Shown here: positions 6,596-26,103 of the stretch, one piece after another | Layout: each line of letters opens with the position of its first letter | Position numbering within the stretch: the first letter of the stretch is position 1 | Source: Escherichia coli | GTDB lineage: Bacteria; Pseudomonadota; Gammaproteobacteria; Enterobacterales; Enterobacteriaceae | DNA length: 64,000 nucleotides | Strand: one strand, 5' to 3' | NCBI RefSeq assembly: GCF_044324875.1 | Contig: NZ_CP172185.1 | Made by a program: the position numbers and the translations under genes | The notes under the pieces: generated by a model | Databases searched by the model: none | Seen by the model: the letters and a program-made list of their open reading frames with translations, nothing else | Told to the model about the DNA's origin: nothing

Positions 6596-6792
6596 TGAAA
6601 GTGAGGGCACTTCAGGGGGACACCGTCGATTTACTCTGTTTCCGGCACTACGGCACCACGCAGGGGGTGACCGCACAGGTACTTGATGCCAATCCCGGGC
6701 TCTGCCGCCAGGTAATTCTGGAAGCGGGACAGGAGGTGGAGATGCCGGAGCCGGAAAGGAAACAGCAACGCGAAAAGGTAAAGCTATGGTGA
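6595..6792 (+). CDS. X: Small tail protein, P2 gpX-like (65 aa)
   Basis: MKVRALQGDTVDLLCFRHYGTTQG...; ATG overlaps L stop (tgATG); position as P2 X. Confidence 0.65.
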   Translation: MKVRALQGDTVDLLCFRHYGTTQGVTAQVLDANPGLCRQVILEAGQEVEMPEPERKQQREKVKLW

Positions 6793-7618: not shown

Positions 7619-8022
7619 GACCGGTTTACGCCGTGATTGTTGCCCTCATGGTGACCGCCCTGACGGCAGTGGCCATGTGGCAGTCATACCGGCTGGGGCG
7701 TGCCGGTGAGGCACGTGACGCCGCAGAGCAGCAGCTGGGCGAATACAGCCGGGCGCTGCGTGAGTCCTCCGCCGTTATCAGCGATGCCTCCGCCGTACTG
7801 CATGAGGTGATGACGCAGCGACAGAAAAGGGCACAGGAAGGAGAAGTCAGACGTGAACAGCTTCGCGAAATTGCTGCGACGGATGAGTGCGCCGGCACTC
7901 TTCCTGACCACCGTTTTACTGACCGGCTGCGCGAACACACGGAACGCGCCACTGCCCGCGCCCTCCTTCCGGTTCATTCCGGCGGGACTGACGACGGGAA
8001 CACGGCCCCCGCCCTTCCCTGA
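7615..8022 (+). CDS. i-spanin (Rz / P2 LysB-like), N-terminal TM anchor
   Basis: ATG 7615 overlaps endolysin stop (ATGA); MRPVYAVIVALMVTALTAVAMW TM then charged coiled-coil-like region. Confidence 0.65.
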   Translation: MRPVYAVIVALMVTALTAVAMWQSYRLGRAGEARDAAEQQLGEYSRALRESSAVISDASAVLHEVMTQRQKRAQEGEVRREQLREIAATDECAGTLPDHRFTDRLREHTERATARALLPVHSGGTDDGNTAPALP

Positions 8023-8167
8023 ACACCCCACATGGGGAAATATCGGGATATGGAGCGACAGCCTCCTGGATGCACTGGAAACCTGCAACGCAGACAAACA
8101 GGCCATTGAGGCGCTGGAGCGCCGGAGACTCAACCGACAGAACGGAGGGGGACATGCTGAAAAGTAA
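7853..8167 (+). CDS. o-spanin lipoprotein (Rz1 / P2 LysC-like), in +1 frame overlapping and extending past the i-spanin gene
   Basis: Signal peptide MNSFAKLLRRMSAPALFLTTVLLTGC with lipobox LTGC; proline-rich mature part; start could alternatively be the internal Met at 7883. Confidence 0.6.
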   Translation: MNSFAKLLRRMSAPALFLTTVLLTGCANTRNAPLPAPSFRFIPAGLTTGTRPPPFPEHPTWGNIGIWSDSLLDALETCNADKQAIEALERRRLNRQNGGGHAEK

Positions 8168-8618
8168 ATCCCTGAGCACACACATGAGTACAGCGTGCCG
8201 GTGGTGCAGGGCCAACCCGGAAAAGTTCACCGTGTTCATTGAACGTGGCGGGATAGAGACCACCGGCGAGACGCCGACGTTCGTGTACAACTACCGGCTC
8301 GTGATGTTCGTCATGGACTACACGGGCGACCTGGACGACCTGACGCTTCCACTGATTGTCTGGCTGGCAGAGAACCAGCCGCAGTTGCTGCTTAATCCTG
8401 AGCGCAACGGCGATATTCAGTTCACGGCGGCCATTAACGACGACGACAGTGCGGACGTGCTTTTTGAGCTGCCGCTGCGCGAGCGCGTGCGCGTCACCCG
8501 CAGGGATGACGGCACCCTCACAACGGAACATCTGCCGGAGCCGAAATCGCGCATCCCGCAGGACGGCGACTGGTCGCACATTCTGGAGGATGTGACGTGG
8601 GAGGTGACCGGTGACTGA
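8154..8618 (+). CDS. R: Tail completion protein, P2 gpR-like
   Basis: Start set at ATG 8154 (MLKSKSL...); VMFVMDYTGDLDDLTLPLIVWLAENQP resembles recalled P2 R. Confidence 0.75.
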   Translation: MLKSKSLSTHMSTACRWCRANPEKFTVFIERGGIETTGETPTFVYNYRLVMFVMDYTGDLDDLTLPLIVWLAENQPQLLLNPERNGDIQFTAAINDDDSADVLFELPLRERVRVTRRDDGTLTTEHLPEPKSRIPQDGDWSHILEDVTWEVTGD

Positions 8619-9252
8619 CAGGGCTTTCACTGAACTGGACCGCACAATGCGGACCATCAGCAGCGGACTTTCCCCGCAGGCACTGAGCCGCATTGCCGGA
8701 CAGCTTGCCAGAGAGGTTCGCCGCAGCCAGCAACAGCGTATGCGCGCACAGAAAGCGCCGGACGGTACACAGTGGGAGCCGCGCAGACGGCGCATCAGCC
8801 GCCTGCAGCAGCGTATCCGCTTCATCCGGAACAACGAAACCCGCACGCTGAAAAACTGGCATCACGACGTGAGCAGACACGGACGCACCATCACCGGCTG
8901 GGATGAGGATAAGGGAGGCCTGCGCACCTTCTACCGGGAGGATATCACCCGTTATATTGAAATCAGCACCCGCCGCATCAGCCGCAACGCCACAAAGACC
9001 GTACCGATGTTTGCGAAGCTGCGCACGGCACGCTACCTGAAAGCCAGAGGCGATGCGGGCGGTCTGACCGTCGGTTATGACGGCGTGGCGGCACGCATTG
9101 CCCGCGTTCACCAGTTCGGGGAGCGCGACCGGGTGGCCGCAGGGGTGTATACGGATTATCCGGCCCGTGAACTTCTTGGAATAACACCGGCAGATGAACG
9201 GCTGATTGCCGACAGGCTACTGAACCGCATTGCGGGAGAAATATCATCATGA
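8611..9252 (+). CDS. S: Tail completion / virion morphogenesis protein, P2 gpS-like
   Basis: 213-aa ORF; GTG at 8611 (next in-frame ATG 8647); overlaps R stop and V start. Confidence 0.7.
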   Translation: MTDRAFTELDRTMRTISSGLSPQALSRIAGQLAREVRRSQQQRMRAQKAPDGTQWEPRRRRISRLQQRIRFIRNNETRTLKNWHHDVSRHGRTITGWDEDKGGLRTFYREDITRYIEISTRRISRNATKTVPMFAKLRTARYLKARGDAGGLTVGYDGVAARIARVHQFGERDRVAAGVYTDYPARELLGITPADERLIADRLLNRIAGEISS

Positions 9253-11077: not shown

Positions 11078-11798
11078 CAGGAAAAAAACAGACAGCGCAC
11101 AGCACAGTACATCACTGCTTCCACCGTCCGCAGGGCCATTCATGCGCGCCACAGAGGCGACAGGAGTACGCATCAGTGCCATACCGGTGGACGCCGACAC
11201 CCTGTGGTCGCCGGACCGCTGCCCTGCTCACCTCCTGCCCTACCTTGCATGGGCATGTTCCGTTGACCGCTGGGACCGCAACTGGCCGGAAGAGACCAGA
11301 CGACAGGTGATTGGCCAGTCCTGGAAGGTACACCGCCAGAAAGGAACGGTCAGCGCACTGAGGGAAACAGCCGCAGCATTCGGTTATGAGATGACCATCA
11401 GTGAATGGTGGGAGCATGGAGGGCAGCCGGGCACCTTTACTGTGACCATCGGGGCAGACACTCAGGGCATCGGCCCTGAAACATGGCTGGAGATGGAGGA
11501 TCTGCTCAATGATGCACGTCCGGTTTCACGTCATATGACGGGGCTTTATGCCGCCCTGCGTTCTGGCGTGACGGTTTACTGCGCTGCGGGAGCAGGCTGT
11601 GATGAGCTTGTAACCATTCACCAGAAAGCTCGCGCCTCCCTGGCGGGCCAGGTGACCATCATCGCAGCAGGAGACACACACACAACCGACAGTGTGACCG
11701 TACTGCCGGGGGTTCCGTCAGGTATGTACGGGGAGATCTGTATCCGTACCGGCGCAGGTATATTCGTGAGTGAGATTGTGGAGGTTATCACCTTATGA
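11070..11798 (+). CDS. I: Tail/baseplate protein, P2 gpI-like
   Basis: Start set at ATG 11070 (MSDRKK...) overlapping J 3' end; directly precedes tail fibre gene. Confidence 0.7.
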   Translation: MSDRKKTDSAQHSTSLLPPSAGPFMRATEATGVRISAIPVDADTLWSPDRCPAHLLPYLAWACSVDRWDRNWPEETRRQVIGQSWKVHRQKGTVSALRETAAAFGYEMTISEWWEHGGQPGTFTVTIGADTQGIGPETWLEMEDLLNDARPVSRHMTGLYAALRSGVTVYCAAGAGCDELVTIHQKARASLAGQVTIIAAGDTHTTDSVTVLPGVPSGMYGEICIRTGAGIFVSEIVEVITL

Positions 11799-12910
11799 AC
11801 ACCGATTTTTATTCCGTTCTGACGGATGCCGGGCTGAAAAAACTGGCGGCAGCCGCAGCATCAGGGAATCAGATGAAAATCACCCATATGGCTGTAGGCG
11901 ACGGAAACGGAAAAGCCGTAACACCCGGCAGGGCCGACACCAGGCTTGTCAGGGAAAAATACCGTGCGCCACTGAACAGTCTGGAAGAAGACACAGAGAG
12001 ACCGGGGCATGTTATCGCAGAAATGGTGATACCTGAAAAACAGGGAGGGTGGTGGATCAGAGAATTCGGATTATTCGACGAAGACGGCGGAATGATTGTT
12101 ACAGGCAAATTTCCTGACACATGGAAGCCTGCACCTGGTCAGGGTGGAGCACGACTGATATCAGTGAAAGTGGTTGTGGCAGTATCACATACAGAAAACA
12201 TTGTGCTGAAAGTGGATCCTTCTGTTGTCATGGCAACCCGGGAATGGGTGAACACAAAAGCAGAGCAGTTAAAGAAAGAGCTCAGACAACCTGATGCAAC
12301 CACCAAAACAAAAGGCATTGTTCAGCTTAGCAGTGACATCAACAGCACCTCTGAAACGCAGGCTGCCACCCCCGGAGCGGTAAAAGCCGTGAATGATCGT
12401 GTGGACGGAAAACAGGACGCGGATCCCACGCTCACATCTCTGTCCGGGAAAAATGCACAGCAACTGAGGCAGCTTCTGGGGCTGGGCACGCTTGCCACCC
12501 TGAACAGGGGCACCGGTTCAGGGAATGTGCCGGACATGAGTCACTTTGCGAGTAAAAAAGCAGACTACGGTTACCAGTGTTTTCCTGGCGGCATAATGAT
12601 CCAGTGGCTGCGGATCCCCTCAGACCACACAGGAAGAGCTGTCAGTCAGGAAGCCCGGGTGGCACTAAGCGGCGTGCGACTGTTTTCAGTGGAGGGTAAC
12701 TGGAACGGTAATAACATGATTAAGACCCTGGCAAACTACCAGTGGCCGAGAGTTTTCGGGGCAATTTATGCGACCGTTGCAACCAGGAATCACGGATCTG
12801 CATGGCGAGTATATCCGGTGTCCGCGAACAAGGATGTGCGTGTCGTATCCATTGCCTGGGCGGGAGAAGGTACAGATGACACTTATGTGGTTGGGGTGGG
12901 AAGAGTATGA
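11795..12910 (+). CDS. H: Tail fibre protein, P2 gpH-like N-terminus with short divergent C-terminal domain
   Basis: N-terminus ...LKKLAAAAASGNQMKITHMAVGDGNG... and internal QLSSDINSTSETQAATPGAVKAVND match the recalled conserved P2 H regions; only 371 aa. Confidence 0.75.
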   Translation: MNTDFYSVLTDAGLKKLAAAAASGNQMKITHMAVGDGNGKAVTPGRADTRLVREKYRAPLNSLEEDTERPGHVIAEMVIPEKQGGWWIREFGLFDEDGGMIVTGKFPDTWKPAPGQGGARLISVKVVVAVSHTENIVLKVDPSVVMATREWVNTKAEQLKKELRQPDATTKTKGIVQLSSDINSTSETQAATPGAVKAVNDRVDGKQDADPTLTSLSGKNAQQLRQLLGLGTLATLNRGTGSGNVPDMSHFASKKADYGYQCFPGGIMIQWLRIPSDHTGRAVSQEARVALSGVRLFSVEGNWNGNNMIKTLANYQWPRVFGAIYATVATRNHGSAWRVYPVSANKDVRVVSIAWAGEGTDDTYVVGVGRV

Positions 12911-13353
12911 AAATGATGTGGTCGCCGTCTGTGGGCGGTTTTTTTGGTGAAGACAGCAGCCATATACCGGAAGATGCGGTGGAGGTTGATGAATCGATGT
13001 GGAGCAGGATGATGGAGGGACAACTTGAGGGAAAAATTATCGTTAACGGCCCTGACGACCTGCCTGTTCTGGAAGAGCGTCCGGGACCGGGGCCAGAAGA
13101 ATACCGGCATCAGGCTCGCCTTGAGCTTGCTGACCTTCGCCGACAGGGGCTGGAACACATAGAGTCGATGCGCTGGCGTGACAAAGCGGTCATGAACAGG
13201 CTGGGAGAAGAGGAGAAGCAGGAGTATAACGCCTGGCTTGACTGGCTCGACGCGCTTGACAGTACGGACATATCAGGGGCACCGGATGTGGTGTGGCCGG
13301 TGATGCCCGTCACGGTGGTTCCTGAACATCCTCAGAAAAAATTGCCGGAGTGA
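12907..13353 (+). CDS. G: Tail fibre assembly chaperone, P2 gpG-like
   Basis: 148-aa ORF overlapping H stop (ATGA); position after tail fibre gene. Confidence 0.65.
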   Translation: MKMMWSPSVGGFFGEDSSHIPEDAVEVDESMWSRMMEGQLEGKIIVNGPDDLPVLEERPGPGPEEYRHQARLELADLRRQGLEHIESMRWRDKAVMNRLGEEEKQEYNAWLDWLDALDSTDISGAPDVVWPVMPVTVVPEHPQKKLPE

Positions 13354-13360
13354 ACAGCCT

Positions 13361-13386
13361 CCGGCCTGAGACTGCACTCAGGCCGG
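13361..13386. terminator. GC-rich hairpin between convergent G and U genes (candidate terminator, weak U-tract)
   Basis: Perfect 10-bp inverted repeat ccggcctgag/ctcaggccgg with 6-nt loop; followed by aaattctgtt on plus strand. Confidence 0.4.
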
Positions 13387-13394
13387 AAATTCTG

Positions 13395-13841
13395 TTATCT
13401 GCCAGCATTGCGGATGATACCCGAAAGCATATCAGACACCGACGGCATCATTCGCTCCCGCAAATCCTCATCACAGCGTTCCATACTGACAGTGAACTCA
13501 ATTTTTTTGGCCTTACCGTGGCGGTCAAGTTCGCTTCGCGTTGTGCGGACAGCCGTTATCACATACATGCCGTATATCTGCCCCACACCGTCAATCAGCG
13601 GCCATGGGCGGCCAGTGTAAGCCTGCGTCGTTAAAAGGCTGAGGGAAACCTCACCGCCGGTAATTTCGGGATAAAGCACACCGGACAACGTGATCTGGTC
13701 GTCACCCGCCCCGATATACTGCCAGCTGGCCGAACGATTGATGCGTTCATTTTTAACGTGGCGCCAGGTTTTATTATGTTGCAGTTGTTGATGAGGCAGC
13801 GTACGCAACTCAAAAACAAACATGCCGTAAATCATCATCAT
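13395..13841 (-). CDS. U: Tail protein, P2 gpU-like
   Basis: 148-aa ORF downstream of tape measure on minus strand. Confidence 0.75.
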   Translation of the reverse strand: MMMIYGMFVFELRTLPHQQLQHNKTWRHVKNERINRSASWQYIGAGDDQITLSGVLYPEITGGEVSLSLLTTQAYTGRPWPLIDGVGQIYGMYVITAVRTTRSELDRHGKAKKIEFTVSMERCDEDLRERMMPSVSDMLSGIIRNAGR

Positions 13842-18786: not shown

Positions 18787-18988
18787 TGCAAAATGGCATC
18801 TGAATCGATCGCAGTTTGGCATTCGAATCGATCATGATTTGGCATCCATCTCCGATCACAGTTTGGCATCACAATCGATCACGATTTGGCATGCTTCCGA
18901 TCATTGATTGGCATCCTGCCAGTCACTCCGGGAATTAACTCTTTTCACCACAGTCTCCATTGCCGTGTTTAAACCAGTGGAGACGTCA

Positions 18989-20554
18989 ATGTCCAGAAAG
19001 AGAAAATCCAGGAGCACTATGGAAACCTGTTTTAAGATCCTTCAGCTCAAGTTCGACAAGAAGCTGACTAACCGTTGTATCGGACTGACGTTACACATCA
19101 GCGCCTCAACCGTTTTTGAGGTTCTTGCCCGCTTCAAAGCCTCTTCTCTGTCATGGCCATTACCTGCTGATATATCCCATGACACGCTGGAGAAACTCAT
19201 TTTTCCGCCCAAAGACACCTTTGCATCAGAGCTTGTAATGCCTGACATGTTGTACTTCGATACGGAAATGAGAAAACCAGGTGTGACGCGGCAACTGTTG
19301 TGGATGGAATACAAGGCACAGGCGGGTAACAAAGCGATGGGATACTCGCACTTCTGCCGTTGCTACCGGGAGTGGAAAAAAACGCGACGTCTCTCCATGC
19401 GCCAGGAGCATCGTGCCGGCGAAAAGCTTTTTATCGACTTCTGTGGTCCTACGGTTCCTGTTATTAATCCGGACACCGGTGAGATACGCCGCGTGGCAAT
19501 CTTCGTGGCCGTAATGGGGGCGTCCAACTATACCTACGTTGAAGCGTGCGAAGGTCAGGACATGATGTCATGGTTAAATGCCCACAGCCGTTGCCTGACC
19601 TTCCTGGGCGGCGTACCGAAGCTGCTCATCCCCGATAACCTCAGAAGCGCAGTGAAAAAGGCCGATCGATATGAGCCTGTCATCAACGACAGTTATCAGG
19701 CACTGGCTGAGCACTATGGCACGGTTATCATCCCGGCCCGACCACGCAAACCTAAAGATAAACCAAAAGCAGAAAACGGCGTCCTCATCGTTGAACGATG
19801 GCTTCTTGCCCGCATCCGTAATGAAACCTTCCACACGCTCAGGGCGCTGAATGCGCGCCTTAGGGAGTTACTGACAGACATGAATAACCGGCCAATGAAG
19901 GGGTACGGCAATCAAACCCGTGCAGAACGCTTCCGCATACTGGATGCGCCAGCACTCTCTCCGCTGCCTCTGGCACCTTATGAATACACGGAATACAAAG
20001 CTGTGAAGGTTGGCCCTGACTACCACGTTGAATATGCCCGTCACTGGTACTCCGTTCCACACGAACTGGTCGGTCAGCGTCTGTCACTGAAGGCGGGGCA
20101 GTCGGTGGTACAGCTCTGGCACAAGGGGCAGTGTGTGGCGCAACATCCGCGCAGCACACATGAATATAAACACACAACCAATCCGCTTCACATGCCAGAG
20201 CGCCACCGGCAGCACGGGACATGGACACCGGAACGCCTGATCGAGCAGGGAAAACGTACGGGCCCGTCCACAGGCCGGGTGGTTGAATCCATGCTGAAGG
20301 CAAAACCCCATCCGGAACTGGCTTATCGTGCAGTTCTGGGGCTGCTGGCACTTCAGAAAAAATACGGCCCGGAACGGCTGGAAAAGGCCTGTTACGTTGC
20401 CCTGCACTATAACGCCCCTGACAGACGCTTTATCGACAATCTGCTGCGTCACCATCGGGAGAACCTGGAGCTTCCATTATCCCGCCAGGGCGAACAACAT
20501 CCGGCATATGCTTCAGAGCATGAAAACCTGCGTGGTCCGGGCTACTACCACTGA
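18989..20554 (+). CDS. istA: IS21-family transposase IstA
   Basis: Start set at ATG 18989 after GGAG (track begins at a TTG at 18908); N-terminal HTH-like segment, ~520 aa; immediately followed by istB. Confidence 0.8.
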   Translation: MSRKRKSRSTMETCFKILQLKFDKKLTNRCIGLTLHISASTVFEVLARFKASSLSWPLPADISHDTLEKLIFPPKDTFASELVMPDMLYFDTEMRKPGVTRQLLWMEYKAQAGNKAMGYSHFCRCYREWKKTRRLSMRQEHRAGEKLFIDFCGPTVPVINPDTGEIRRVAIFVAVMGASNYTYVEACEGQDMMSWLNAHSRCLTFLGGVPKLLIPDNLRSAVKKADRYEPVINDSYQALAEHYGTVIIPARPRKPKDKPKAENGVLIVERWLLARIRNETFHTLRALNARLRELLTDMNNRPMKGYGNQTRAERFRILDAPALSPLPLAPYEYTEYKAVKVGPDYHVEYARHWYSVPHELVGQRLSLKAGQSVVQLWHKGQCVAQHPRSTHEYKHTTNPLHMPERHRQHGTWTPERLIEQGKRTGPSTGRVVESMLKAKPHPELAYRAVLGLLALQKKYGPERLEKACYVALHYNAPDRRFIDNLLRHHRENLELPLSRQGEQHPAYASEHENLRGPGYYH

Positions 20555-20570
20555 CAGAAGGAACAACAGT

Positions 20571-21326
20571 ATGAGTGATAACCTGTTAAACAAACTGACC
20601 CAACTGAAACTCCCGGCGATGGCCGGGAGCCTGATACGGCAGCGGGAAACGCCTCAGACCTACGACGAACTGTCGTTCGAGGAAAGGCTGACGCTGCTGG
20701 TTGATGACGAGCTTCTGAGCAGGGAAAACAGCCGTGTGGCACGGTTGAGAAAAAATGCCGGCCTGAAATACCAGGCAACACCGGAAGGGCTGCGCTATCC
20801 GGCCTCAAGAGGTCTGCGGGCTGAACAGATGAGAGAACTGCTGAACGGCCACTACATAACCCACAGGAAAAACCTGCTGATAACCGGTCCGACAGGATGT
20901 GGCAAGAGCTGGATAGCCAATGCGCTGGGCGAACAGGCATGTCGACAGAAACACAGCGTCCGGTACTGTAGAACCGGGCGATTACTGGAACAACTGGCTC
21001 AGGGACGTGTTGATGGCAGCTGGCTGAAATATCTGAAACAGTTGCAAAAAATACAGGTTCTAATCCTGGACGATCTGGGGCTGGAACAGTTAAGTAACGC
21101 CCAGTGTAATGACCTTCTGGAGCTCATAGAGGATCGTTACGGACAAAGCAGCACGATAGTGGTAAGCCAGTTCCCGGTAGATAAATGGCATGGTCTGATG
21201 GAGAACCCAACAACAGCAGATGCCATCCTGGACAGACTGGTACATAACTCACACCGAGTGGTCCTTCAGGGAGAGTCACTGAGGAAAAATCCCCCGGTAG
21301 TGGAAAGCAGCGAAAAAACGCGTTAA
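20571..21326 (+). CDS. istB: IS21-family ATP-binding helper protein IstB
   Basis: Start set at ATG 20571 after AAGGAA; Walker A GPTGCGKS and Walker B ILDDLG motifs, 251 aa. Confidence 0.85.
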   Translation: MSDNLLNKLTQLKLPAMAGSLIRQRETPQTYDELSFEERLTLLVDDELLSRENSRVARLRKNAGLKYQATPEGLRYPASRGLRAEQMRELLNGHYITHRKNLLITGPTGCGKSWIANALGEQACRQKHSVRYCRTGRLLEQLAQGRVDGSWLKYLKQLQKIQVLILDDLGLEQLSNAQCNDLLELIEDRYGQSSTIVVSQFPVDKWHGLMENPTTADAILDRLVHNSHRVVLQGESLRKNPPVVESSEKTR

Positions 21327-21425
21327 AAAGCGGTAGAAAAAGTTAAGTTCCCGGTTGATCGAATGGATGCGAATCGCTGATCGGACTTCGATGCCAATCC
21401 GTGATCGAATAGAGCGGAATACGCA

Positions 21426-22566: not shown

Positions 22567-23658
22567 ATGACCGACCTGTTAATCAACGTTCCGTCACCGG
22601 ATATCGAAATCACCATCAACAACAACAGACTCCGTAACGTCACGGAGCGGCTCATGACGCTGTCACTGACCGACAACCGGGGCTTTGAGGCGGACCGCGT
22701 CACCCTGACCATTGACGACGCGGACGGGCAGCTTCAGCTGCCACAGCGCGGCGCACGCCTGAACGTGATGATTGGCTGGCGCGGGGAGGCGCTGGTTAAC
22801 AAGGGTGTCTACATCGTTGATGAAGTGACGTGGGAAGGCCCGCCGGACAAACTGACCATCACCGCCAGCAGCGCCGATTTTCGCGAAGAGTTCAACGTGA
22901 AGCGTGAAGTCTCCTGGCACGACGTGACGGTAAAACAGGTTGTGTCAGCCATCGCGCACCGCTACGGCCTGAAAGCACAGATAAGCGATATCCTCATGGA
23001 TATCGAAATTGACCACGCAGACCAGACCGAAGAGAGCGATATATCCTTCCTGACCCGCATGGCTGAAATGCTGGGTGCGATTGCCACCGTAAAAAACGGC
23101 AGCCTGTTATTCATTCTGCCGGGTGGCGGAACCGGGCCGGACGGAAAAGCCCTGCCTTCGTTCGCCATTACCCGCAGCAGCGGCGACAGTCACCGCTTTC
23201 GCATTGCTGACCGTGATGCGTATACGGGGGTCCGGGCGCACTGGCTCGATCTGAAGTTCGGGCAAAAGAAAAAAGTGAACGTGAAGCGACGCAGGGAAGC
23301 CGGGAAACAGAAACAGGAGAAGAGCAGCAGCCGGGAAGGTGATTACATGGAGGGCGCGGAAGGGAACGTCTACGTTCTGCGCAGGACTTACCAGAATGAA
23401 GAAACCGCACGACGTGCAGCAGCTGCAAAGTGGCAGGAACTACAGCGGGGCGCGGCATCATTCTCCATCACGCTGGCGCGCGGTCGTGCCGACCTGTACC
23501 CTGAAATGCACGGCAGGGTAACAGGTTTTAAAAGCGAGGTGGACAATCAGGACTGGATTATTGCCAGGGTGGAGCACAGCATAGATGAAAGCGGCTTCAC
23601 CACACAACTGGAGCTGGAAGCGAAAATCCCCGAATGGATAGCAGATTCAGGCGGATAA
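22567..23658 (+). CDS. D: Tail protein, P2 gpD-like
   Basis: 363-aa ORF; size and position before ogr; leader CACGAGGGC shared with O gene leader. Confidence 0.8.
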   Translation: MTDLLINVPSPDIEITINNNRLRNVTERLMTLSLTDNRGFEADRVTLTIDDADGQLQLPQRGARLNVMIGWRGEALVNKGVYIVDEVTWEGPPDKLTITASSADFREEFNVKREVSWHDVTVKQVVSAIAHRYGLKAQISDILMDIEIDHADQTEESDISFLTRMAEMLGAIATVKNGSLLFILPGGGTGPDGKALPSFAITRSSGDSHRFRIADRDAYTGVRAHWLDLKFGQKKKVNVKRRREAGKQKQEKSSSREGDYMEGAEGNVYVLRRTYQNEETARRAAAAKWQELQRGAASFSITLARGRADLYPEMHGRVTGFKSEVDNQDWIIARVEHSIDESGFTTQLELEAKIPEWIADSGG

Positions 23659-23701
23659 AATTAAAATGAGCCATCTCCACTCAGCCAGATAAGGAGAAGC
23701 C

Positions 23702-23953
23702 ATGTTCCGTTGTCCCCTGTGCGGTGCATCCGCACGTATCCGCACCAGTCGCAATGAAAATGATTCAGGCACAGTTCGCCTGAAGTACTACCAGTGCAAT
23801 AACCTCGAATGCGGGATCGGCTTTACCACACTGGAGGGTTTTAACAAATTCACATCAAAACGCGCCCCGTCGCCGCAGGGTACAGAGCGGATACCGTGGG
23901 AAGATTTTCCGGGATCTCACAGGGGGAATGCTCAGATGAATCTTGATATTTAA
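23702..23953 (+). CDS. ogr: Ogr/Delta-type zinc-finger late transcription activator
   Basis: MFRCPLCGASARIRTSR...YYQCNNLECG: CxxC...CxxxxC arrangement and N-terminal similarity to recalled P2 Ogr. Confidence 0.8.
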   Translation: MFRCPLCGASARIRTSRNENDSGTVRLKYYQCNNLECGIGFTTLEGFNKFTSKRAPSPQGTERIPWEDFPGSHRGNAQMNLDI

Positions 23954-24002
23954 GAACAATAATCAGGTTGAGAGGACATCATAAGGCAAGTAGATTAACG
24001 GC

Positions 24003-24097
24003 AGATACTTTCCCGCAACCACGGGCAAGTATTTAATTATCCATGATGAAATATGACCTAAATTGTTTTTTGCCCGCCGGAAAGCGGGCATTTTTTT
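24003..24097 (+). ncRNA. Candidate small RNA cassette 1 (promoter TTGAGA-17-TAGATT at 23968-23996; hairpin + U7 terminator 24072-24097)
   Basis: Exact 17-bp spacer; stem GCCCGC/GCGGGC then TTTTTTT; no convincing RBS or ORF; also serves as terminator after ogr. Confidence 0.35.
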
Positions 24098-24311
24098 ATT
24101 CTTTTGTGGTTATGGGGTCATCAGGAACCACGTGCAGATTATATTTTTGTTTTTTTGGCGTTCCTCCGGCAGCAACGAGTTCATCAATAAGACACTGACA
24201 CGCCTGAACATCCCGGGCATGTCTTAGTTTCACCTTTATTGATTTAACCTTATCCTCACCGGAGGAGAAATGCAGTTCAATCTCAATATCGTTTCTTCGG
24301 AACAATCTCAT
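24096..24311 (-). CDS. Hypothetical 71-aa protein (no family recognised)
   Basis: ATG preceded by AGGGGG; MRLFRRNDIEIELHFSSGEDKVKSIKVKLRHARDVQACQCLIDELVAAGGTPKKQKYNLHVVPDDPITTKE; AT-rich upstream region with TATAAT-like elements. Confidence 0.4.
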   Translation of the reverse strand: MRLFRRNDIEIELHFSSGEDKVKSIKVKLRHARDVQACQCLIDELVAAGGTPKKQKYNLHVVPDDPITTKE

Positions 24312-24483
24312 ACGCCCCCCTGAATATATCAGAAATGCTAGTATCGAAAAATGAGAAAACAGTTAGACAGGAGAAACATATTAACACAAATCATTTATAC
24401 CTATAGATGAAATTATAATTTCATTCATGAATATGATAGATAACTATATTGTGAACAAAATGAAAAATGGCTAAATTAAAAAT

Positions 24484-24564
24484 GGGCATGGAGGAATGCC
24501 TCGTAATCAGTAATACATGATCCATACTTCCTTGTTTTGCCCGCCGGAAAGCGGGCATTTTTTT
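24484..24564 (+). ncRNA. Candidate small RNA cassette 1b (promoter TTGTGA-17-TAAATT at 24449-24477; terminator 24539-24564)
   Basis: Same terminator sequence as cassette 1; body shares ATACATGATCCATAC-like segment with the other cassettes. Confidence 0.3.
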
Positions 24565-24668
24565 GGCGGTTACCATCGCCTCACCTTCCTGGTTCACACA
24601 AAGCAACCCTGATTTTCCATGAAAACTTCAGGGTTGAGCCAAAAGCACAAAGACAGTAGATTAACCAA

Positions 24669-24767
24669 GGGTACCCGCCACCTGCCAACAGGAACGGTAT
24701 CCAGTACGTATTAATGACTGACAATTCACATTGCTGTTTTGCCCGCCAGAAGGTGGGCATTTTTTTG
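24669..24767 (+). ncRNA. Candidate small RNA cassette 2 (promoter TTGAGC-17-TAGATT at 24634-24662; terminator 24741-24767)
   Basis: Terminator stem GCCCGCC/GGTGGGC carries substitutions relative to cassettes 1 and 1b that keep pairing; 5' body ACCAAGGGTACCCGCCACCTGCCAACAGGAA. Confidence 0.4.
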
Positions 24768-24871
24768 GCAGTTATCATGGACGCACCTTCATGACACATA
24801 TTAAGCAGACCTGATTTTTCCATGAAAAATTCATGGTTGAGACAAAAGCACAAAAACAGTAGATTAACCAC

Positions 24872-24969
24872 GGGTGCCTGCCACCTGACAACAGGAAGGG
24901 GTGTCCATTATCCATGATATACAAACGAAAAGTCTTGTCTTTTGCCCGCCGTTGCGCGGGCTTTTTTTT
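24872..24969 (+). ncRNA. Candidate small RNA cassette 3 (promoter TTGAGA-17-TAGATT at 24837-24865; terminator 24944-24969)
   Basis: Terminator stem GCCCGC/GCGGGC with different loop (CGTTGC); 5' body ACCACGGGTGCCTGCCACCTGACAACAGGAA ~85% identical to cassette 2. Confidence 0.4.
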
Positions 24970-25366
24970 ATCCAAGAACCCTGTCTGCAGCAACACGCGC
25001 CAGAAATCCAGAGCGGCTACCGTATTCAGGATGAGACTCAACGAACTGATCAATGCGACGAATAAGCAGAGATGGCAGGGTAACATTGATTTTTTCCGAT
25101 TTCCCCATCAGGCGGGACACATCCACCTCAACGAGCGCCCACACTGCATCACTGTATTCAGGATCTGATTGCCATTCATCAAGATTTGTAGCGACAGGGA
25201 TAGACTCACCAGATTCAACCAGTAATTCTACGTGTGCCTCAATGGCTTCACGGGCACTGTCTACCGCATCCTGAAAACTATCACCGCCAGAAAAACAGCC
25301 GGGCAGATCTGGGACGCGAACACCAAAAGATGAATCCCCCCGGTCAATAGCGATTGCATATAACAT
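24968..25366 (-). CDS. hicB: HicB-family antitoxin (N-terminal HicB fold plus C-terminal ribbon-helix-helix)
   Basis: 132-aa ORF MLYAIAIDRGDSSFGVRVPDLPGCFSGGDSFQDAVDSAREAIEAHVELLVESGESIP...KINVTLPSLLIRRIDQFV; GGAGG 5 nt before ATG; 22 nt downstream of hicA. Confidence 0.7.
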   Translation of the reverse strand: MLYAIAIDRGDSSFGVRVPDLPGCFSGGDSFQDAVDSAREAIEAHVELLVESGESIPVATNLDEWQSDPEYSDAVWALVEVDVSRLMGKSEKINVTLPSLLIRRIDQFVESHPEYGSRSGFLARVAADRVLG

Positions 25367-25388
25367 TGAGACCTCCAGAAGGTGGGGC

Positions 25389-25568
25389 TTACAGCCCCGC
25401 CTGTTTCTTAATACTTTTTAAAGTTGGTAAAGGTATATCTTTTTGAGGGTGTTTTACCGTTACCAGCCCCTTCTTTGTCGGATGTTTGAATTGATGATGA
25501 CTCCCCTTAACCCTAACAAGATACCATCCATCCGCCTCTATCATTGCTATTGCACTTTTGCTATCCAT
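25389..25568 (-). CDS. hicA: HicA-family mRNA-interferase toxin (59 aa; absent from ORF track because <60 aa)
   Basis: Manual translation MDSKSAIAMIEADGWYLVRVKGSHHQFKHPTKKGLVTVKHPQKDIPLPTLKSIKKQAGL; matches the recalled HicA pattern GW...GSHH.F.HP...G.VTVPHP.KDL..GTL.SI.KQAGL. Confidence 0.65.
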   Translation of the reverse strand: MDSKSAIAMIEADGWYLVRVKGSHHQFKHPTKKGLVTVKHPQKDIPLPTLKSIKKQAGL

Positions 25569-25588
25569 CCCCCCGTACTCCGTCTTTC

Positions 25589-25617
25589 GTTGTTGGAGTT
25601 ATTATAACCCCAACAAC
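25589..25617. promoter_or_regulatory. Palindrome GTTGTTGG-N13-CCAACAAC upstream of hicA (candidate operator)
   Basis: Perfect 8-bp arms read directly; GGAGTTATTA also repeated at 25595 and 25636. Confidence 0.35.
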
Positions 25618-25767
25618 TAGTCAAAGCAAGGGTTCGGAGTTATTAGAGTTATAGAATAATTGACTGCCTCCCCAAAACTGCGGCAAGAAAAAACCACTGA
25701 CCACGGTCAATTTGTGGATCATGAATTAATTTTTATTTATAAATCAATGCATTATACAAAGAAAAAA

Positions 25768-25787
25768 GGCCGCAGAGCGGCCTTTTT
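25768..25787 (-). terminator. Intrinsic terminator downstream of ihfA (bidirectional hairpin)
   Basis: ggccgcagagcggcc stem-loop flanked by A-run upstream and T-run downstream. Confidence 0.6.
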
Positions 25788-25799
25788 AGTTAGATCAGA

Positions 25800-26099
25800 T
25801 TACTCGTCTTTGGGCGAAGCGTTTTCGACCCGGCTTTTTAACTTCTGCCCGGGTCTGAAGGTCACCACGCGCCGTGCTGTAATGGGAATATCCTCGCCCG
25901 TTTTCGGGTTACGTCCCGGGCGTTGATTCTTATCACGCAGATCGAAGTTACCAAAACCAGAGAGTTTCACCTGTTCGCCGTTTTCCAGAGCGCGACGGAT
26001 CTCTTCGAAAAACAGTTCAACCAGTTCTTTGGCATCCCGCTTGCTAAGCCCAAGCTTATCAAACAGATATTCTGACATTTCAGCTTTTGTAAGCGCCAT
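25800..26099 (-). CDS. ihfA: Integration host factor alpha subunit
   Basis: 99-aa translation [92 protein letters not shown]... recognised as E. coli IHF-alpha. Confidence 0.95.
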
Positions 26100-26103
26100 A
26101 GGT

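Follow-up and report, generated by a model that had tools for sequence, protein, structure and literature searches.

The question raised by this locus is what the 1846 bp between ogr and ihfA (23954-25799) represent, and at which base the neighbouring prophage gives way to host DNA, in a stretch of 64,000 nucleotides of Escherichia coli contig NZ_CP172185.1 (the whole of which is called the window here). The first-pass annotation had placed a prophage beside ihfA with about 1.8 kb of accessory DNA at the junction, which was borne out by genome comparison. The gene order that it had given for K-12, ihfA followed by btuC, is right, with the btuC start 100 bp past the ihfA stop codon, and btuC is absent on this side of ihfA as it had said, a P2-like prophage separating the two genes here. 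btuC is missing from the window altogether because the window begins inside the prophage, at the portal gene; the integrase and attL belong to the left end of the prophage, which the window does not reach. The elements that flank the interval are as follows.

1-25782: right-hand portion (about 25.8 kb) of a P2-like, P88/Xuanwuvirus-related prophage, from portal gene to attR, assigned by colinearity with the prophages of genomes F374 and 23CRST011
22567-23658, + strand: gpD, the P2 late/tail gene D (Pfam Phage_GPD, E = 4e-17)
23702-23953, + strand: ogr, late-gene activator zinc-finger protein (Pfam Ogr_Delta, E = 5e-14; annotated as ogr/Delta-like in the siblings)
25800-26099, - strand: ihfA, the first host gene (Pfam Bac_DNA_binding; annotated ihfA, WP_001229265.1)

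Beyond ihfA stand pheT and then pheS. The interval itself contains an orphan ORF, four hairpin copies, 203-bp tandem units, hicB and hicA; its + strand exhibits four copies of a G+C-rich hairpin, each followed by a T-run, and two of the 203-bp units. The G+C content of the interval is 0.42-0.47, against 0.52-0.63 in the phage structural genes.

For the boundary, attL, the integrase and btuC were read from the two sibling genomes F374 and 23CRST011, not from the source strain. Both siblings are 100% identical to the window over 23600-26100 and 98-99.6% identical over the remaining prophage, F374 also differing in tail fibre and IS content, and both carry a full set of P2-type late and structural genes in the order btuC, two small genes, integrase, P2 genes, D, ogr, orphan ORF, hicB, hicA, ihfA. 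A three-way alignment of the K-12 empty site, the F374 attL and the window attR left 25 bp alone as common to all. Exact copies of this core number two in F374, two in 23CRST011, one in K-12 and one in the window, where no further copy was detected even with 3 mismatches allowed; the two sibling copies are 36.5-37.1 kb apart, the second of them beside btuC and a tyrosine integrase gene. The attachment region of the window includes the following elements.

25703-25720, + strand: arm-type repeat ACGGTCAATTTGTGGATC in the phage arm, a putative integrase arm-binding site, matching the arm repeat on the integrase side
25742-25754, + strand: predicted IHF site AATCAATGCATTA by consensus match, 3 bp from the core
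25758-25782, no strand assigned: attR core of 25 bp, AAAGAAAAAAGGCCGCAGAGCGGCC, the sole stretch identical across the K-12 empty site, attL and attR
25763-25787, - strand: intrinsic terminator of ihfA, intact at attR (terminator scan)

The prophage boundary, which the first-pass annotation had left open, is now fixed to the base: all of 23954-25782 lies inside the prophage, so that the 1.8 kb is phage-borne, and 25783-25799 (17 bp) is the only host sequence there outside the duplicated core. The core 25758-25782 consists of hairpin and U-tract from the intrinsic terminator of ihfA, and the 3' end of ihfA also matches the Rfam family STnc540 (25703-25858, - strand; 43.1 bits against a gathering score of 38). 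A search for a shared core at one of the terminator hairpins had been proposed beforehand, and this expectation held: the core is a terminator hairpin, namely that of ihfA, and none of the four hairpins of the array, which were rejected as attachment cores. Neither a tRNA nor a tmRNA is present as an integration target. The repeat ACGGTCAATTTGTGGATC shares 16 of 18 bases with GTGGTCACTTTGTGGATC, the motif in the arm beside the integrase gene (6636-6653 of the sequence designated L003), which is identical in SE11, and the integrase gene in that sequence (7767-8717, outside the window) was identified as a tyrosine integrase by Pfam Int_N and Phage_integrase and by phrog_1. Matches to the IHF consensus WATCAANNNNTTR are limited to two in the 64-kb window, one of them at 25742-25754; the SE11-type attachment site has a match at the corresponding position, and in both types another one lies on the far side of the core.

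The possibility that the junction is ancestral host DNA was excluded by the comparison with empty-site genomes, in which homology resumes only at 25758 and the btuC-ihfA junction is intact in 5118 of 5426 complete E. coli genomes. An interval lost by K-12 and most strains has nothing in its favour except the position beside core genes, and is met only together with the prophage and inside 25-bp direct repeats, which leaves that explanation with a vanishingly small probability. About 6% of complete genomes (roughly 300 sites) have the btuC-ihfA site occupied, mostly by the SE11 type, and a related integrase gene was observed in 283 genomes, with at least 90% identity to the present type in 4-5 genomes. 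The array was met in 30 genomes. The hicAB segment beside ihfA is confined to 4 of the 5426 genomes, and all 10 contigs that were read with an identical HicB display the context ihfA-hicAB-orphan-ogr.

These distributions also bear on the view that the prophage ends just after ogr and that the 1.8 kb is a separate islet, either the remnant of an earlier element or a hicAB island. The AT-richness of the interval relative to the phage backbone, the decayed-looking repeats inside it and its absence from every sequenced phage would agree with such an islet, but with no internal core copy at up to 3 mismatches there is no sign of a second element; the segment 23954-24969 also occurs in the sibling prophages at copA, serS and zapB-glpF and is kept whatever the integration site; hicAB and the phage arm are found together with the integrase of the ihfA type, with a prophage in all four hicAB genomes and hicAB at ihfA without a prophage in 0 of 5426; and the arm repeats that match the integrase-side arm stand to the right of hicAB. 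A separate islet is thus very improbable.

The interval 23954-25782 is very probably the cargo-carrying right end of a P2-like prophage integrated in the ihfA terminator. Under this integration model, recombination by the tyrosine integrase would place the prophage into the intrinsic terminator, with attP carrying the terminator hairpin and U-tract as a 25-bp copy, and recombination with the host copy would double the 25 bp. ihfA retains an intact terminator at attR because the recombination duplicates the core, and btuC would keep its own upstream 58 bp and a second terminator copy at attL, where that copy would also end the phage integrase operon, which reads towards btuC. The predicted attP junction is ...CATTATAC-core-ATAATTGC..., and the predicted attL of the source strain, beside btuC, is AAAGAAAAAAGGCCGCAGAGCGGCC followed by ATAATTGCAATC, two small genes and the integrase. 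When the 45 nt across the attP junction were searched as an exact string, there were 0 matches in viral contigs and in metagenome contigs, where absence is weak evidence; none of the phage records contained the attP of the window type, the array or the SE11-type attP. The part from 23954 to 25757 forms a cargo (moron) region between ogr and the attachment site. Its segment 23954-24969 would consist of small transcription units that all end in the same + strand terminator, and hicAB, probably transcribed from a promoter of its own, abuts the phage arm. The first of these parts contains the following elements.

23966-24097, + strand: unit U0, with a promoter-like site, a predicted 5' hairpin and terminator T1 (RNA fold z-score -3.4)
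24096-24311, - strand: orphan ORF of 71 aa, matching phrog_14142
24538-24564, + strand: terminator copy T2 (repeat and terminator scans)
24567-24768, + strand: unit U1, 203 bp, with a spacer, TTGAGC-17-TAGATT, a 5' hairpin and terminator T3 (repeat and terminator scans)
24769-24971, + strand: unit U2, 203 bp, with a promoter-like site (24837-24865), a 5' hairpin and terminator T4 (repeat and terminator scans)

The promoter-like site of U0 (23968-23996) consists of TTGAGA, a 17-nt spacer and TAGATT. The terminators are formed by a stem at 24071-24090 followed by seven T residues (T1), by 24740-24759 followed by seven (T3) and by 24944-24961 followed by eight (T4), and the terminator scan returned 10 intrinsic terminators against 2.6 expected. 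T1 probably ends the D-ogr transcript as well, and the four + strand terminators may prevent antisense transcription from the ogr side across the orphan gene, hicAB and ihfA. The orphan ORF belongs to a family without known function, its homologues among 5.8 billion proteins are restricted to near-identical E. coli sequences, and searches of Pfam, PADLOC and the PDB sequences gave no match. An AlphaFold2 model built from the single sequence (pLDDT 76) exhibits a fold of three strands, a helix and a strand, from whose topology a HicB-like protein was considered and dropped, as Foldseek against the PDB returned nothing below E = 0.35. Additional copies of the ORF in the sibling prophage L006 are truncated.

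The three units resemble the hok/sok (hok/gef) loci of sibling prophages in their position after ogr, their promoter hexamers, the 17-nt spacing, the transcription start region and the 5' hairpin, and the hok cassette of L006 ends with a terminator that is a copy of the array hairpin. In a shuffle test against two hok promoter/leader sequences, 0 of 1000 shuffles reached the score observed for U2, the significant likeness extending over about 30 nt, whereas U0 and U1 were not significant singly. The hok/sok loci contain a toxin ORF, whereas the units of the window are promoter-to-terminator stubs of about 95 nt without one: the best tblastn match of a sibling Hok protein to the whole window (E = 0.48) falls in another part of it. 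Judged by sequence likeness, the units appear to be homologous to the hok/gef promoter and leader without the toxin ORF, and would yield RNAs of about 95 nt. The Rfam scan of the units returned nothing credible (AgvB, Hrs1 and Trp leader at E near 0.1-1), STnc540 at the 3' end of ihfA being the only family above its threshold, and covariation amounts to 3 compensatory pairs only, among 10 closely related copies. It is rather doubtful, though conceivable, that the units are functional small-RNA genes derived from hok leaders and active in the lysogen, and that the terminator hairpin is in addition a preferred crossover point at which co-resident P2-like prophages exchange cargo and entire blocks of attachment site and integrase, thereby changing their chromosomal target.

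The positions at which siblings diverge call for another explanation to be weighed. Homology with some sibling prophages stops at 24766, in U1, and 24969 is the last base shared with the copA sibling, so that each transition from conserved to variable sequence falls exactly at a hairpin copy; sibling arrays display up to 9 hairpins between different small cassettes (orphan ORF, hok/gef, 73-aa ORF). This pattern could suggest an array dedicated to cassette capture, whether integron-like or based on another site-specific system, with the hairpins serving for recombination and not for termination. Neither an integron-type integrase (IntI) nor an attI-type primary site was detected in or near the interval, however; the hairpins, unlike the imperfect attC-type ones of integrons, are perfect G+C stems with T-runs that share a single strand and are scored as intrinsic terminators; promoter-like sites are present within the cassettes themselves, whereas integron cassettes are promoterless; and many cassette copies are truncated duplicates, as unequal or homologous recombination among sibling prophages in one genome would produce. 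A capture array is highly unlikely on these grounds.

The second part of the cargo is the toxin-antitoxin module, whose elements are listed here.

24968-25366, - strand: hicB antitoxin, 132 aa, full length (Pfam HicB_lk_antitox PF15919, E = 9e-46, residues 3-126)
25389-25568, - strand: hicA toxin, 59 aa (Pfam HicA_toxin PF07927, E = 8e-22; PDB 4c26, 6g26)
25589-25629, - strand: putative hicAB promoter, with -35 TTGCTT at 25629-25624, a 17-nt spacer and -10 TATAAT at 25606-25601

In the direction of transcription hicB follows hicA after a gap of 20 bp, and the catalytic histidine motif of HicA, GSHHQF, is intact in the translation. Residues 3-128 of HicB align with the solved structures 6g1n (residues 4-129) and 6g26, and HicB3 (4p78) was matched as well. 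A palindrome with 14-nt arms, an inverted repeat 93% complementary (25589-25617), overlaps the putative promoter and is likely, from its sequence and position, to be the HicB operator. Compared with HicAB of Burkholderia pseudomallei (6g26) and HicA3B3 of Yersinia pestis (4p78), both proteins exhibit full-length matches, and as in known HicAB systems the toxin gene stands upstream of the antitoxin gene and a palindrome covers the putative promoter. Unlike in known HicAB systems, the module is set directly against the attachment-site arm of a P2-like phage; it may be active, and may stabilise or protect the lysogen. Among other temperate phages, hicAB or hicA was observed in Citrobacter phage phiNP (75% nucleotide identity) and in Haemophilus phages HP1 and HP2.

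The comparison of sibling prophages, which occur at up to 6 places per genome, separates the right end into two modules. Between the early genes and window position 24969, the F374 and copA prophages show 98.5-99.3% identity, and they are unrelated over the stretch that begins with hicAB, crosses the attachment site and ends with the integrase; the copA prophage has its own cargo ORF between T4 and its 20-bp core. The segment 24970-25757, with hicAB and the phage arm of the attachment site, co-varies with the integrase. On the circular phage map, hicAB, the attachment site, the two small genes, the integrase and the immunity genes constitute one exchangeable module, and near-identical phages have different integration sites because one contiguous block (cargo, attachment site, integrase) differs. 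Near-identical phages at ihfA, copA, serS and zapB-glpF therefore provide a clean case of module exchange with the breakpoint at a terminator copy.

The observation is right, is of an ordinary kind and leaves current understanding unchanged. For annotation, hicAB, the orphan gene and the repeat units belong to the phage as cargo and are not host genes. It adds a further P2-like phage that targets and rebuilds an intrinsic terminator, and this terminator belongs to the gene of IHF alpha, IHF being the host factor that such phages use for integration.

The closest sequenced phages are P88-like, with about 77% nucleotide identity; when 23954-25799 was searched against sequenced phages, only homologues of hicAB or hicA were matched, and the array was not found. 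The window copy of the prophage may be defective and have ceased to act as a phage because an IS21-family element breaks its tail sheath gene (Phage_sheath_1), a gene that is intact in F374. In phage P2 and its relatives, likewise, ogr closes the late genes ahead of the attachment site, integration relies on a tyrosine integrase and IHF-type sites, and attachment sites fall at terminators and small-RNA genes, between ogr and the integrase gene; other E. coli P2-like prophages occupy small-RNA loci such as rybB and cyaR (table, PMC3032704). Unlike in P2, the target is the ihfA terminator, ogr is separated from the attachment site by about 1.8 kb of inserted cargo, and the prophage has its tail gene block in inverted orientation. 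The nearest published counterpart is the P2-like prophage PP_SE11-4 of strain SE11, reported in 2008 between btuC and ihfA with a 25-nt duplication (Oshima et al.; PMC2608844). It shares with the present prophage the integration site, the 25-nt duplication, the integrase with two small genes beside btuC, the arrangement of ogr and then a toxin-antitoxin cassette beside ihfA, the IHF positions and an identical integrase-side arm motif (TGTGGTCACTTTGTGGATC). It differs in its integrase gene, which is only about 78% identical in DNA, in a backbone from another P2-like lineage, and in its cargo, which is a single hok/gef locus, whereas that of the window comprises the orphan ORF, the 203-bp units and hicAB.

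The interval between ogr and ihfA (23954-25799, 1846 bp) carries an orphan ORF and a hicAB pair, and the genes in and around it are arranged as follows, gpD and ogr on the + strand and ihfA, pheT and pheS on the - strand, where the first-pass annotation had placed them.

22567-23658, + strand, gpD
23702-23953, + strand, ogr
24096-24311, - strand, orphan ORF of 71 aa
24968-25366, - strand, hicB
25389-25568, - strand, hicA
25800-26099, - strand, ihfA, with pheT and pheS next, also on the - strand

Four copies (T1-T4) of the hairpin TTTTGCCCGCC-N4-6-GCGGGC, each with a T-run after it, lie in the interval, all on the + strand, and Tandem Repeats Finder detected two 203-bp tandem units (period 203, 2.1 copies, 78-84% matches). 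The G+C content of the interval is 0.42-0.47, versus 0.52-0.63 in the phage structural genes.

The interval is not host DNA. In K-12, btuC starts 100 bp past the ihfA stop codon, in line with the first-pass annotation, and a 401-bp probe across this junction is unbroken in 5118 of the 5426 complete E. coli genomes and split in about 307; homology between the window and the intact-junction genomes picks up again only from 25758. The hicAB segment was observed beside ihfA in only four complete E. coli genomes, all with the prophage, and in a larger set of assemblies the 10 contigs read that encode an identical HicB all exhibit the order ihfA, hicA, hicB, orphan ORF, ogr, D. The first-pass observation is confirmed and its reading of a prophage abutting ihfA is supported; the junction and homology comparisons exclude the alternative of ancestral host DNA.

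Two sibling genomes with a P2-like prophage at this locus, F374 and 23CRST011, are 100% identical to the window across 23600-26100 and share the order btuC, two small genes, tyrosine integrase, P2-type early and late genes, D, ogr, orphan ORF, hicB, hicA and ihfA. Three-way alignment of the K-12 empty site, the F374 btuC-side junction (attL) and the window ihfA-side junction (attR) gave a common core of exactly 25 bp, AAAGAAAAAAGGCCGCAGAGCGGCC, present once in K-12, twice each in F374 and 23CRST011 (36.5 and 37.1 kb apart) and once in the window (25758-25782), even with 3 mismatches permitted; two elements in tandem were ruled out because there is no third, internal copy. The attL side was read in these siblings, which are 98-99.6% identical to the window over the prophage, the window's own attL lying outside it. 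On the - strand the core reads GGCCGCTCTGCGGCC then TTTTTTCTTT, identified by terminator scan as the intrinsic terminator of ihfA, hairpin plus U-tract. The core shared with a terminator hairpin, which the first-pass annotation had suggested looking for, was found in this way, and the prophage boundary it had left open is placed at 25758-25782, within the ihfA terminator. The core lies inside an Rfam STnc540 match at 25703-25858 (-), which scores 43.1 bits (gathering score 38) and covers the ihfA 3' end; STnc540 is an enterobacterial small RNA, and the core coincides with the terminator of the match. Since the core comprises the terminator hairpin and U-tract, integration rebuilds the ihfA terminator at attR and leaves a second copy at attL, upstream of the unchanged 58-bp btuC leader, where its orientation would suit it to end the btuC-directed integrase operon. 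Phage records, viral contigs and metagenome contigs yielded neither an excised form nor a virion genome with this attachment site.

The sequences flanking the core look like a P2-type attachment site. An IHF consensus match, AATCAATGCATTA (25742-25754), lies 3 bp left of the core and is one of only two in the 64-kb window, a second IHF consensus match sits just beyond the right edge of the core, towards the integrase, and farther from the core ACGGTCAATTTGTGGATC (25703-25720) matches GTGGTCACTTTGTGGATC of the integrase-side arm. Because these elements stand right of hicAB, the true phage arm lies there, which places hicAB inside the phage genome.

Differential histories were observed for the two parts of the interval. 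The prophages of F374 and LH50-c, the latter a sibling at copA, are colinear, with 98.5-99.3% identity, between the early genes and window position 24969 (the final T of terminator T4), and unrelated outside this stretch. On the circular map the unrelated DNA forms one contiguous block, which in the F374-type prophage runs through hicB, hicA, the phage arm, the core and the second arm and ends with two unknown genes, the integrase and immunity genes; in LH50-c the block comprises a 73-aa ORF, an arm in which ATGGACAC and GTGGACAC are the repeats, and a core of 20 bp, CTTGACCTTCCCCTTGCTGG, located in the copA promoter region. The same backbone with a different attachment-site/integrase module therefore targets a promoter, not a terminator. 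Copies of this 20-bp sequence at L010 7671-7690 and 42820-42839 mark the two ends of the near-identical LH50-c prophage. Since identity ends at 24969 with one unrelated block beyond, the interval has two parts with separate histories: 23954-24969 is cargo linked to the backbone, found as well in siblings at copA, serS and zapB-glpF, and 24970-25757 is part of the module determining the integration site. In other siblings the shared sequence stops earlier, at 24766, where T3 ends.

The hicAB pair is complete. HicA matches PF07927 and PDB 4c26 and 6g26, and its GSHHQF motif is intact; residues 3-126 of the 132 in HicB match PF15919, and the protein also aligns with 6g1n over almost its full length and with 4p78. 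A candidate promoter upstream (TTGCTT, 17-nt spacer, TATAAT) is overlapped by a palindrome with 14-nt arms, the putative HicB operator expected there. The only relatives of the orphan ORF are near-identical E. coli proteins, a sibling array has additional, truncated copies of it, and Pfam, PHROGs, PADLOC and fold searches gave no function-bearing family, defence-system or fold match.

Three units between ogr and hicB (U0, U1 and U2) have in common TTGAGn, a 17-nt spacer, TAGATT, a short hairpin, about 45 A+U-rich nt and a terminator, and align with hok/gef loci over the promoter and 5' leader; these loci occupy the same post-ogr position in SE11-type prophages and also occur within sibling arrays. 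The U2-hok similarity exceeds 1000 of 1000 shuffles, U0 and U1 each being not significant alone, and the window contains no Hok ORF. The units appear to be hok-locus stubs that may still produce RNAs of about 95 nt, for which covariation is thin. The four terminators are co-directional with D and ogr and opposed to the orphan gene, hicAB and ihfA; plausibly, they block late-operon transcription from going antisense into the cargo and ihfA. A - strand terminator-like hairpin, GGCATTCCTCCATGCC then a T-run (24485-24500), lies upstream of the orphan ORF promoter region and could block read-through from the hicAB side.

Sibling arrays exhibit up to nine hairpins between orphan-ORF, hok/gef and 200-bp cassettes, several of them degraded copies. 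The array of LH10-b-1 at serS (L006 3355-6700) is far longer than that of the window, with nine copies of the hairpin, three cassettes of the orphan ORF (two truncated), two of hok/gef (one without a -10 region) and four 200-bp units. Only 30 of 5426 genomes contain the units, yet at up to six places per genome, and the array probably arose by unequal or homologous recombination among co-resident sibling prophages, which needs no special mechanism; there is no support for an integron-like system, because no such integrase lies in or near the interval and the hairpins have the form of canonical terminators.

In the window copy, the P2-type tail sheath gene is interrupted by a 2.64-kb IS21-family element (18787-21425) with TG...CA ends, a flanking 7-bp target duplication (CACCTGA) and two genes.

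18908-20554, IstA
20328-21326, IstB

The sheath ORF is 392 aa in the window versus 427 aa in 10 sibling contigs, and the copy is therefore probably defective in its tail. The tail-fibre region (11360-13416) aligns to neither sibling prophage, its flanking genes being 98-99.6% identical, which is the usual host-range cassette variation.

The integration site is already published: PP_SE11-4, a P2-like prophage of 35.8 kb, is listed as lying "between btuC and ihfA" and as having a 25-nt duplication (Oshima et al. 2008, PMC2608844), and a related integrase gene occurs in 283 genomes, typically with about 78% nucleotide identity to the one here. The SE11-type prophage has the same arm elements at the same positions, with an identical integrase-side motif. 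Common ihfA-site prophages hold large variable cargo between D and ogr (L008 914-4033; L009 295-3743), in one case a 1039-aa protein annotated as an MFS transporter and in another a SIR2-family protein with an ATP-binding protein, the latter looking like a defence-system hotspot. Two small genes oriented as btuC lie between the integrase gene and attL (F374 L003 6640-7780; SE11 L021 1857-2656) and are not alike in the two prophage types; for the F374 pair, Pfam and PADLOC gave no match and PHROGs gave only function-unknown families, and the position resembles a second cargo slot, at the opposite end of the prophage. Other P2-like prophages occupy small-RNA loci such as rybB and cyaR, which a core at the STnc540 terminator fits. 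PP_SE11-4 shares the architecture of the window prophage but has a hok/gef locus between ogr and attR, two more genomes checked (L008 and L009) are arranged like it, and a right end with hicAB is a rare version of this ordinary arrangement.
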